From a virus (lineage: Duplodnaviria > Heunggongvirae > Uroviricota > Caudoviricetes), in the IMG/VR virus record IMGVR_UViG_2695420897_000007: 4,716 nt of DNA; one strand, written 5' to 3'. The notes under the pieces were generated by a model. It searched no databases, was not told the origin of the DNA, and saw only the letters and a program-made list of their open reading frames with translations. Numbering within the stretch: position 1 is the first letter of the stretch; the number at the start of each line of letters is the position of its first letter. Shown here piece by piece: positions 1 through 2,838 of this stretch. Position numbers and translations under genes: made by a program.

Positions 1-2838
1 GACAGCACCACAGACCAGCTGCAGAACAAAACGCTCTGGTCGTCATACACCGAAATCATCGATGTGAAACAGTGCTACCCGAACACGGCACTGGTCGGCG
101 TGCAGGTGGACTCGGAGCAGTTCGGCAGCCAGCAGGTGAGCCGTAATTATCATCTTCGCGGGCGCATTCTGCAGGTGCCGTCGAACTATAACCCGCAGAC
201 GCGGCAATACAGCGGTATCTGGGATGGAACGTTAAAACCGGCATACAGCAACAACATGGCCTGGTGTCTGTGGGATATGCTGACCCACCCGCGCTACGGC
301 ATGGGGAAACGTCTTGGTGCGGCGGATGTGGATAAATGGGCGCTGTATGTCATCGGCCAGAATTGCGACCAGTCGGTGCCGGACGGCTTTGGCGGCACGG
401 AGCCGCGCATCACCTGTAACGCTTACCTGACCACACAGCGCAAGGCGTGGGATGTGCTCAGTGATTTCTGCTCGGCGATGCGCTGTATGCCGGTATGGAA
501 CGGGCAGACGCTGACGTTCGTGCAGGACCGACAGTCAGATAAGGTGTGGACCTATAACCGCAGTAATGTGGTGATGCCGGATGATGGCGCGCCGTTCCGC
601 TACAGCTTCAGCGCCCTGAAGGACCGCCATAATGCCGTTGAGGTGAACTGGATTGACCCGAACAACGGCTGGGAGACGGCGACAGAGCTTGTTGAAGATA
701 CGCAGGCCATTGCCCGTTACGGTCGTAATGTCACGAAGATGGATGCCTTTGGTTGTACCAGCCGGGGGCAGGCACACCGAGCCGGGCTGTGGCTGATTAA
801 AACGGAACTGCTGGAAACGCAGACCGTGGATTTCAGCGTGGGCGCAGAAGGGCTTCGCCATGTGCCGGGCGATGTTATTGAAATCTGCGATGATGACTAT
901 GCCGGTATCAGCATCGGTGGTCGCGTGCTGGCGGTGAACAGCCAGACCCGGACGCTGACGCTCGACCGTGAAATCACGCTGCCATCCTCCGGCACCACGC
1001 TGATAAGCCTGGTTGACGGTGAGGGTAATCCGGTCAGCGTGGAGGTCCAGTCCGTCACCGACGGCGTGAAGGTGAAAGTGAGCCGTGTTCCTGACGGCGT
1101 TGCCGAGTACAGCGTGTGGGGGCTGAAGCTACCGACGCTGCGCCAGCGCCTGTTCCGCTGCGTGAGTATCCGTGAGAATGACGACGGCACGTATGCCATC
1201 ACCGCTGTGCAGCATGTGCCGGAGAAAGAGGCCATCGTGGATAACGGGGCGCACTTTGACGGCGACCAGAGCGGCACGGTGAATGGTGTCACGCCGCCAG
1301 CGGTGCAGCACCTGACTGCCGAAGTCACCGCAGACAGCGGGGAATATCAGGTGCTGGCGCGCTGGGACACGCCGAAGGTGGTGAAGGGGGTGAGCTTTAT
1401 GCTTCGCCTGACCGTGGCAGCGGACGACGGCAGTGAGCGGCTGGTCAGCACGGCCCGGACGACAGAAACCACATACCGCTTCACGCAGCTGGCGCCGGGG
1501 AACTACAGGCTGACAGTCCGGGCGGTAAATGCGTGGGGGCAGCAGGGCGATCCGGCGTCGGTATCGTTCCGGATTGCCGCACCGGCAGCGCCGTCACAGA
1601 TTGAGCTGACGCCGGGCTATTTTCAGATAACAGCGGTCCCGCGTCTTGCGGTGTATGACCCGACGGTACAGTTTGAGTTCTGGTTTTCGGAAACGCGGAT
1701 TACCGATATCAGGCAGGTTGAAACCACAGCCCGCTACCTTGGCACGGGGCTGTACTGGATAGCCGCCAGTATCAATATCAAACCGGGCCATGATTATTAC
1801 TTTTATATCCGCAGTGTGAACACCGTTGGCAAATCGGCATTCGTGGAGGCCGTCGGTCGGGCGAGCGATGATGCGGAAGGTTACCTGGATTTTTTCAAAG
1901 GCAAGATAACCGAATCCCATCTCGGTAAAGAGCTGCTGGAAAAAGTCGACCTGACGGAGGATAACGCCAGCAGACTGGAGGAGTTTTCGAAAGAGTGGAA
2001 GGACGCCAACGATAAGTGGAATGCCATGTGGGGCGTCAAAATTGAGCAGACCAAAGACGGCAAACATTATGTCGCGGGTATTGGCCTCAGCATGGAGGAC
2101 GCGGAGGAAGGCAAACTGAGCCAGTTTCTGGTTGCCGCCAATCGTATCGCGTTTATTGACCCGGCAAACGGGAATGAAACGCCGATGTTTGTGGCGCAGG
2201 GCAACCAGATATTCATGAACGACGTGTTCCTGAAGCGACTGACGGCTCCCACCATTACCAGCGGCGGTAATCCTCCGGCATTTTCCCTGACACCGGACGG
2301 AAAGCTGACCGCTAAAAATGCAGATATCAGTGGCAGTGTGAATGCGAACGCCGGGACGCTCAACAATGTCACAATTAATGAGAACTGTCAGATTAAGGGG
2401 AAACTGTCAGCCAACCAGATTGAAGGCGATATAGTCAAAACAGTGGGTAAGGCTTTTCCGCGGGACTCCCGGGCACCGGAGCGGTGGCCATCAGGGACCA
2501 TTACCGTCAGGGTTTATGACGATCAGCCGTTTGACCGGCAGATTGTTATTCCGGCGGTGGCATTCAGTGGCGCTAAGCATGAGAGAGAGCATACTGATAT
2601 TTACTCCTCATGCCGTCTGATAGTGCGGAAAAACGGTGCTGAAATTTATAACCGTACCGCGCTGGATAATACGCTGATTTACAGTGGCGTTATTGATATG
2701 CCTGCCGGTCACGGTCACATGACGCTGGAGTTTTCGGTATCAGCATGGCTAGTGAATAACTGGTATCCCACAGCAAGTATCAGCGATTTGCTGGTTGTGG
2801 TGATGAAGAAAGCCACCGCAGGCATCAGTATCAGCTGA
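1..2838 (+). CDS. J: Tail tip / host specificity protein J (central tail fibre), 5'-partial; C-terminal ~945 aa present
   Basis: Frame 1 is open from base 1 to TGA at 2836-2838. The track's start at 64 is a GTG (Val) inside the frame; codons 1-63 have no stop, so the gene begins upstream of the window. The translation ([37 protein letters not shown]..., [64 protein letters not shown]...) matches what I recall of phage lambda gpJ. The middle part (~nt 1290-1850) reads like two fibronectin-III/Ig-like beta-sandwich modules, and the last ~150 aa is where lambda gpJ carries its receptor-binding domain. Gene order J-lom-stf matches lambda. Confidence 0.92.

Follow-up and report, generated by a model that had tools for sequence, protein, structure and literature searches.

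A lambda/434-lineage tail-tip gene J with an exchanged, probably OmpC-directed receptor-binding domain of the VT1-Sakai type, and a G+C step that lies elsewhere in the gene

The window considered here, the whole stretch of 4,716 nucleotides (nt) that was analysed from IMG/VR virus record IMGVR_UViG_2695420897_000007, carries the distal tail genes J, lom, and stf of a lambda-like E. coli prophage, and the protein encoded by its J gene, the tail-tip or central tail fibre protein gpJ, is mosaic. Its C-terminal receptor-binding domain (RBD) is a genuine, recombinationally exchanged module on a J body of the lambda/434 lineage, and the exchanged block, at nt ~2350-2915, comprises the RBD and the spacer between J and lom. 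Taken as a whole, it appears highly probable that a lambda/434-lineage J body is joined to a VT1-Sakai-type RBD and spacer through recombination, that the resulting tail tip is directed at OmpC, and that a drop in G+C content further upstream in the gene is a separate matter. The original prediction, made from the letters of the window alone, had taken this drop as evidence for a swapped specificity module spanning nt 1600-2838. Its interpretation is partly supported: the module swap is real, but the boundary lies ~750 nt downstream of the place proposed, the module itself being ~145 amino acids (aa) long (nt ~2350-2838, extending into the J-lom spacer), and the compositional argument is invalid, since the step is common to lambda-type J genes and almost none is found at the real junction.

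Taken in blocks of 50 aa, identity to lambda gpJ stays at 0.88-1.00 up to residue 800 of the window protein and then falls to 0.58, 0.34, and 0.36, and re-alignment of the last 145 aa gives 42.5%; the earlier statement that the last ~150 aa diverge from lambda gpJ, with a lambda-like part upstream, is thus borne out, and the C-terminal peptide quoted with it was found exactly as written. At the nucleotide level, blastn aligned nt 1-2399 at 95.2% identity to lambda J and 95.9% to 434 J, unbroken through the G+C step, and returned no match of the window to lambda or 434 from nt 2400 to the end of J; the matches to VT1-Sakai amounted to 78% over nt 1-1901 and 92.4% over nt 2025-4716. Per 100 nt, identity to lambda and 434 drops from 0.85-1.00 to 0.46-0.55 at nt 2400, and that to VT1-Sakai rises to 0.96-0.99; the part from nt 2400 to 2838 is ~50% identical to lambda and 434, and 88-100% identical to VT1-Sakai and phage 500465-3. 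When mismatches are counted in steps of 25 nt, those against lambda and 434 number 0-2 up to nt 2349, 4-8 over nt 2350-2399, and 9-24 thereafter, and those against VT1-Sakai and 500465-3 are down to 0-2 from nt ~2475. A maximum chi-square test on the sites at which lambda and VT1-Sakai differ (window/lambda/VT1 triplet) placed the breakpoint at nt 2337-2363, with 489 lambda-like versus 36 VT1-like sites on its left and 13 versus 162 on its right (Fisher p 2.5e-105), and the 434/VT1 triplet gave the same breakpoint. On the 3' side, informative sites remain VT1-like through the J stop codon, the spacer, and the terminator, and are 434-like again at nt ~2915.

The same module is also present on another backbone. 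VT1-Sakai carries this RBD (96-100% nt identity over nt 2500-2838) on a J body that is just 55-78% identical to that of the window at the nucleotide level, and the body lineage of the window carries three other RBDs, namely in lambda, 434, and A8-like phages. Together with the abrupt, statistically supported change of nearest relative, this identifies the RBD as a mosaic module, and the earlier proposal of a recombinationally exchanged receptor-recognition end is supported by the collapse of identity at nt ~2350, the second body, and the discrete RBD classes described below. The 5' crossover stretch is 86-98% conserved among all RBD classes, and the natural junction lies within ~30 nt of the point (lambda aa 964, window nt ~2332) at which the engineered gpJ chimeras 1A2 and A8 were fused (PMC11338833). 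Within the junction, nt 2350-2475 form a small mosaic patch with a 23-residue peptide that is identical to A8-type gpJ (PDB 9WCA), unlike VT1-Sakai/1A2, and the 50 aa preceding the RBD are 98% A8-like versus 88% VT1-like. Across the J family, the nearest relative changes near nt 1200, 1600, 1900, 2350, and 2850-2915.

A tblastn search with the 145-aa RBD against 50,697 phage records yielded 243 records in which the RBD classes are discrete, with ~56 at ≥90% aa identity (the VT1-Sakai type), 81 at 60-80% (mEp460, Lambda_ev203, and Stx2a_F349, i.e. the A8 type), and 105 below 60%; records of the lambda type lie at ~43% and those of the 434 type at ~40%. The window RBD is 97.9% identical to that of VT1-Sakai; the values for A8, lambda, and 434 are 60.7%, 42.5%, and 39.6%. 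By near-identity of its C-terminal ~145 aa it belongs to the VT1-Sakai/gpJ-1A2 class, from which (VT1-Sakai) it differs at 3 of 145 residues, I811L, R862K, and S943T, all of them conservative. It lies outside the LamB-binding lambda type, defined by high identity to lambda gpJ aa ~986-1132, and outside the OmpC-binding 434 type, the insertions of which are absent from the window J. The motifs GD.VK, FDRQ, NG, DMP.G, and KK...GIS are common to all classes, and differences as well as insertions and deletions cluster between them. The Pfam family matched here, Ig_GpJ_C, is labelled 'C-terminal receptor binding domain' and is covered over its full profile length, and the sequence matches in the PDB (lambda gpJ, 8xcj/8iyk; A8 gpJ, 9wca) indicate that the window RBD would share the fold of the lambda RBD. 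Of 5426 complete E. coli genomes, 3380 contain a match to a block of 399 nt from the RBD (median copy number 2, maximum 10); the block is present at ≥95% identity in no fewer than 2046 records, and it is 100% identical in STEC (E. coli that produce Shiga toxin) and other strains, including O103:H2, O45:H2, and O80:H26. This RBD is, in other words, a common and already characterised cassette, and both the phenomenon and the allele were known before.

With regard to the receptor, the earlier suggestion that it differs from LamB is supported: the receptor-recognition end very probably targets another receptor. The evidence, strong but indirect and drawn by analogy with 1A2, points to OmpC as the most likely receptor, used in an allele-selective manner such that EDL933-like OmpC would be accepted and K-12 OmpC would not. 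Brödel et al. (Nature 2024) built fusions of lambda gpJ with the C-termini of natural gpJ variants from E. coli prophages and assayed delivery in strain MG1655 without lamB and ompC, complemented with single OmpC alleles (PMC11338833). With 1A2, MG1655 carrying EDL933 OmpC became 98.7% positive for green fluorescent protein (GFP) at a multiplicity of infection of 233 (Fig. 1b source data) and 98.3% in the control of Extended Data Fig. 8a; the values were 5.2% in wild-type MG1655 and 2% in the double deletion with K-12 OmpC (PMC11338833). This chimera works on OmpC groups G3 and G5 and fails on G1 and G2, and it delivers 'to the EDL933 variant only', whereas A8, which also uses OmpC and for which solved structures are available (9WCA/9WCB), accepts both K-12 and EDL933 OmpC (PMC11338833). 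The supplementary sequence of 1A2 is a machine-read PDF with insertions and deletions and is recoded, and the comparison was made by exact 4-mer coverage in three frames; over the last 170 residues, 1A2 4-mers cover 161 of 170 in VT1-Sakai J, 152 of 170 in the window J, 39 in 434, and 31 in lambda. On account of the near-identity of the window RBD to the 1A2-matching type of VT1-Sakai, we infer OmpC as its receptor. As context only, the long-tailed siphophage phi330 of enterohaemorrhagic E. coli was independently shown to need OmpC (PMC12502783).

The exchange would have come about by homologous recombination, with the 5' crossover in the near-invariant stretch with which the beta-prism ends in all J types, and the 3' crossover in the conserved C-terminal tail of J, the terminator, and the start of lom. 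A model of docking and triggering can be borrowed from the cryo-electron microscopy of lambda gpJ with LamB (PMC11101478). By this model, three copies of the RBD would sit below the beta-prism and together make up the central fibre's tip, as in the lambda structures, and the bottom loops of each Ig-like domain would insert into the extracellular side of the trimeric porin. Binding is predicted to spread the tip, to compact and twist the prism, to flip the helical shaft and the FNIII strings, and to open the tube. The parts above the RBD (window aa 1-800) are 94-100% identical to those of lambda at the aa level, and the transduction machinery is therefore expected to be unchanged; only the porin-contacting domain would differ from lambda.

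The G+C step is a different matter. The hand counts of the original prediction (~65% at nt 1321-1380 and ~47% at nt 2581-2640) are exact, at 0.650 and 0.467, and the sliding-window profile agrees with its remark that J becomes AT-richer from nt ~1600: in windows of 200 nt, G+C is 0.64-0.68 over nt 1200-1600 and 0.51-0.53 over nt 1600-2000. The maximum-likelihood single change point within J falls at nt 1617, with a log-likelihood gain of 12.1 that was matched by none of 300 codon shuffles, and G+C amounts to 0.647 at nt 901-1600 versus 0.519 at nt 1601-2838 (z = 5.5). G+C at third codon positions (GC3) falls as well between these segments, from 0.785 to 0.604, and amino acid composition is therefore not the whole cause of the drop. 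In lambda, the G+C-rich left arm is known to be succeeded by AT-richer DNA from about the point where J ends. In the same aligned columns, G+C goes from 0.66 to 0.52 in lambda, from 0.64 to 0.53 in 434, and from 0.64 to 0.53 in VT1-Sakai. The comparison was widened to the J genes of Stx2c_PV98-693, Lambda_2E9, Stx2_5044, PhiR12_2, mEp013, and a Pasteurella phage; the first four have the same step at the same aligned position, and the very distant J of mEp013 (30% aa identity) has a weak step and is the sole such exception. In all compared E. coli J genes of the lambda type, even at 48-62% aa identity, FNIII-2 and the shaft have a G+C of 0.50-0.54, as opposed to 0.63-0.65 in the segment that closes with FNIII-1.

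The drop is hence a conserved, family-wide property of the boundary between FNIII-1 and FNIII-2, unrelated to the RBD swap, and because it is common to lambda-type J genes it is no mark of DNA gained by this phage. The window remains ~95% identical to lambda for another ~750 nt beyond the step. At the real junction a compositional discontinuity was sought by comparing nt 1601-2399 with nt 2400-2838 and not found (0.524 versus 0.508), and the sole significant G+C step in J is the one at nt 1617, which is also present in lambda. Uniform identity to lambda and a flat G+C profile, the pattern that the original prediction had named as speaking against a swap, was not seen, in that identity collapses at the end of the gene and G+C is not flat; yet the two do not coincide (nt ~1617 versus ~2350). 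As a candidate for the swap boundary, the G+C drop was rejected on alignment with lambda, 434, VT1-Sakai, 500465-3, and five further J genes.

A tentative reading is that the step marks an old, family-wide module boundary, such that the distal half of J (FNIII-2, shaft, prism, and RBD) may have had a separate compositional history and circulated semi-independently among lambdoid phages, with FNIII-2 as a conserved landing pad for recombination; the balance of probability is against it. The persistence of the step at 48-62% aa identity would fit, as would the joint fall of GC3 and total G+C, the jump in identity of VT1-Sakai and Stx2_5044 from ~0.6 to 0.9-1.0 at nt 1600, and a lineage switch in Lambda_2E9 at nt ~1875-1900. 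FNIII-2 (nt 1600-1900) was observed to be a conserved island, in which nucleotide identity to VT1-Sakai and Stx2_5044 rises from 0.52-0.78 in FNIII-1 to 0.86-1.00; past this domain, identity to both drops to ~30% in the shaft, with a length difference of ~84 nt. The start of the island coincides with the change point at nt 1617.

Of the alternatives to a recombinational origin, divergence in place from the lambda or 434 allele, by accelerated point mutation under selection for host range and with no recombination, would draw on the observation that such selection concentrates substitutions in the J C-terminus (10.1101/2020.06.25.171868) and on the RBD fold and several motifs that are common to all types; this work by Andrews & Fields is a deep mutational scan of lambda J and not a survey of natural RBD alleles. 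Divergence in place is scarcely conceivable in view of the fall of nucleotide identity from ~95% to ~50% within ~50 nt, synonymous sites included, the near-identical RBD on a far less similar body in VT1-Sakai, and the exchange of the adjoining non-coding spacer as well, and it is effectively refuted by the triplet test with its clean switch of site parentage. That the drop at nt ~1600 should mark a foreign segment gained specifically by this phage is highly improbable. The change point is statistically strong, and GC3 falls as expected of DNA with a different history; both before and after nt 1600, however, identity of the window to lambda and 434 is 86-100%, and these two have the same step, as do five more J genes at 48-97% aa identity, which refutes this explanation for the window versus lambda.

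On the other hand, the swap could be real and the domain still bind a receptor other than OmpC (e.g. LamB, OmpF, or FhuA), or a set of OmpC alleles other than that of 1A2. It can be argued that single substitutions in lambda J shift receptor use from LamB to OmpF (PMC11101478), and that the OmpC-using chimeras 1A2 and A8 already differ in the alleles they accept. This is nevertheless unlikely, given that the RBD is so close to the 1A2-matching VT1-Sakai type, with conservative exchanges only (I/L, R/K, S/T), that the next nearest class, A8, uses OmpC too, and that STEC genomes commonly contain the 399-nt block in exact form; the three substitutions may shift the accepted set of OmpC alleles. 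An OmpC-directed, VT1-Sakai-type RBD exchanged by recombination remains the preferred reading, and several points weigh against it. The match to 1A2 rests on 4-mer coverage and not on a clean alignment, the tblastn alignments being broken, and OmpC use was measured on 1A2 and not on this exact allele, which is separated from VT1-Sakai/1A2 by the 3 conservative RBD substitutions and 6 more in the prior 50 aa. The source data of Extended Data Fig. 2c (OmpC-EDL933) repeat the panel-b values (OmpC-MG1655) for 1A2 and A8, neither direction nor timing of the recombination can be read from these data, and the 5' 558 nt of J, which correspond to the N-terminal hub (lambda aa 1-186), lie beyond the window, so that freedom from internal stops holds for the 945 codons covered. 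The repeated values (PMC11338833, supplementary file 10) look like a copy error, and the other panels and the text were relied upon.

Among phages, the best matches of the window are 434, Evi, 2B8, and lambda h434, with ~96% identity over 91-92% of its length in two pieces. In E. coli, the window matches best to a lambdoid prophage of strain 12009 (O103:H2), which is collinear over the full length at 98.3% and also has the full mosaic of lambda-like body, this RBD, and 434-like lom and stf; 80 of its 82 mismatches fall in nt 1-2000 and only one past nt 2300. In this genome (NC_013353.1, 874459-879844) a cluster of type III secretion effector genes (nleB2, nleC in part, nleH, cif with a frameshift, and nleA) follows the tail-fibre genes, in the region beyond the 3' end of the window. 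Among the phages, 434 matches best overall (96% identity across 92% of the window), with J body, lom, and stf all 434-like; its OmpC-binding J, however, has another RBD allele with extra loop insertions, and 434 and the window J would therefore use OmpC via different contacts.

With lambda gpJ (LamB-binding; PDB 8IYK, 8XCJ, 8XCK) the window protein shares the domain order of hub, FNIII-1, FNIII-2, helical shaft, beta-prism, and Ig-like RBD, as well as the G+C step. It differs from lambda in the RBD and in the expected receptor, OmpC instead of LamB, and the window lom and stf are diverged (45-60% identity over much of nt 2900-3400 and after nt 3900). The same RBD class is shared with the 1A2 chimera, a lambda-type J body fitted with this RBD, and with VT1-Sakai (Sp15, AP000400); 1A2, however, is engineered, whereas the window J is a natural prophage gene, and the J body of VT1-Sakai belongs to another lineage (78% nt identity). 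VT1-Sakai J (AP000400) is annotated as two overlapping truncated coding sequences, 'truncated protein by a mutation', and the window J is without such a stop in its 945 codons. The next closest RBD is that of gpJ A8 (PDB 9WCA/9WCB) and the mEp460/Lambda_ev203/Stx2a_F349 class, which is likewise OmpC-dependent but differs in its loops and by an insertion of 5 residues, and is thus an allele of its own.

That the C-terminus of J is exchanged as a module is knowledge that dates back to the lambda h434 hybrids, the classical precedent in which a swapped J end changes the receptor (PMC11101478), and the present allele is already part of engineered lambda delivery vehicles and of most sequenced E. 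coli genomes. For annotation, the J tip as determinant of host range can be given the label OmpC-type (1A2/VT1-Sakai class) and not LamB-type, which bears on the prediction of E. coli strains open to the phage or its transducing particles. The case also illustrates that a change of composition within a phage gene is not necessarily the trace of a recent swap: the junction in this J is without a clear compositional signature, and the clear step is ancestral.

The features of the window are compiled in the table below. No internal stop interrupts frame 1 between nt 1 and the stop codon at nt 2836-2838, and nt 1 corresponds to nt 559 of lambda J, such that the window covers the distal five-sixths of the gene. 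The Pfam domains follow each other in the order Phage-tail_3 (aa 144-310), Ig_J, Ig_J_second, Phage_Tail_Tip, and Ig_GpJ_C, all far above their cut-offs; this is the ordered set of a lambda-type J, with hub, two Ig/FNIII domains, shaft and prism, and the C-terminal Ig_GpJ_C. The names of the shaft and beta-prism domains were taken from PMC11101478. The shaft region is 95-98% identical to lambda and 434 at the nucleotide level, and just 29-65% to VT1-Sakai over nt 1900-2200. The gene order J-lom-stf is typical of the lambdoid tail module and recurs in 434, lambda, VT1-Sakai, and the prophage of O103:H2 12009.

Table. Coordinates of genes, domains, and other features in the window (nt).
Feature	Position	Strand	Basis
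Tail-tip/central tail fibre gene J, 3' 2838 nt (945 codons and stop)	1..2838	+	Open reading frame, identity to lambda J and 434 J, Pfam domains
FNIII-1, first Ig-like domain of J, end of the G+C-rich part	1270..1584	+	Pfam PF24421 Ig_J, aa 424-528, E 5.6e-42; G+C 0.63-0.70
FNIII-2, second Ig-like domain of J	1588..1896	+	Pfam PF24489 Ig_J_second, aa 530-632; G+C change point at domain start
Alpha-helical shaft and beta-prism (central straight fibre), lambda/434-like	1975..2358	+	Pfam PF09327 Phage_Tail_Tip, aa 659-786
5' crossover zone, conserved in all J types	2250..2363	+	Best breakpoint nt 2337-2363
Exchanged receptor-binding module (Ig-like RBD), VT1-Sakai/'1A2' type	2400..2838	+	Pfam PF12421 Ig_GpJ_C, nt 2443-2835, aa 815-945, E 2.1e-37
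Terminator-like hairpin and T-run after J	2857..2884 (hairpin 2857-2876)	+	Terminator scan; inside the VT1-like block
lom-like outer-membrane beta-barrel gene (Ail/Lom family), 434-like	2906..3505	+	Pfam PF06316 Ail_Lom, E 2.9e-119; 94-99% nt identity to 434
Second terminator-like hairpin and T-run, after lom	3532-3563 (hairpin 3532-3553)		Counterpart of an annotated 434 terminator
Side tail fibre gene stf, 5' part, continues past the window end	3570..4716	+	Translation; 92-99% nt identity to 434 stf and VT1-Sakai

Downstream of J, both terminator-like hairpins have counterparts in the phage 434 record, where terminators are annotated at equivalent places, and lom, being flanked by them, appears to be a separately bounded, moron-like unit. 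The Stf protein begins with an N-terminus like that of lambda Stf, followed by an Ala/Ser/Glu-rich segment and then by collagen-like G-X-Y repeats, the long run of which (GPPGPKGEQGPAGPQGPKGDKGERGDTGP...) occupies aa ~247-365 (window nt 4308-4665). These repeats give rise, at nt 4300-4600, to a G+C peak of 0.70-0.73 and a strong purine skew, and blastn detected self-similarity inside stf between nt 4347-4477 and nt 4446-4585.

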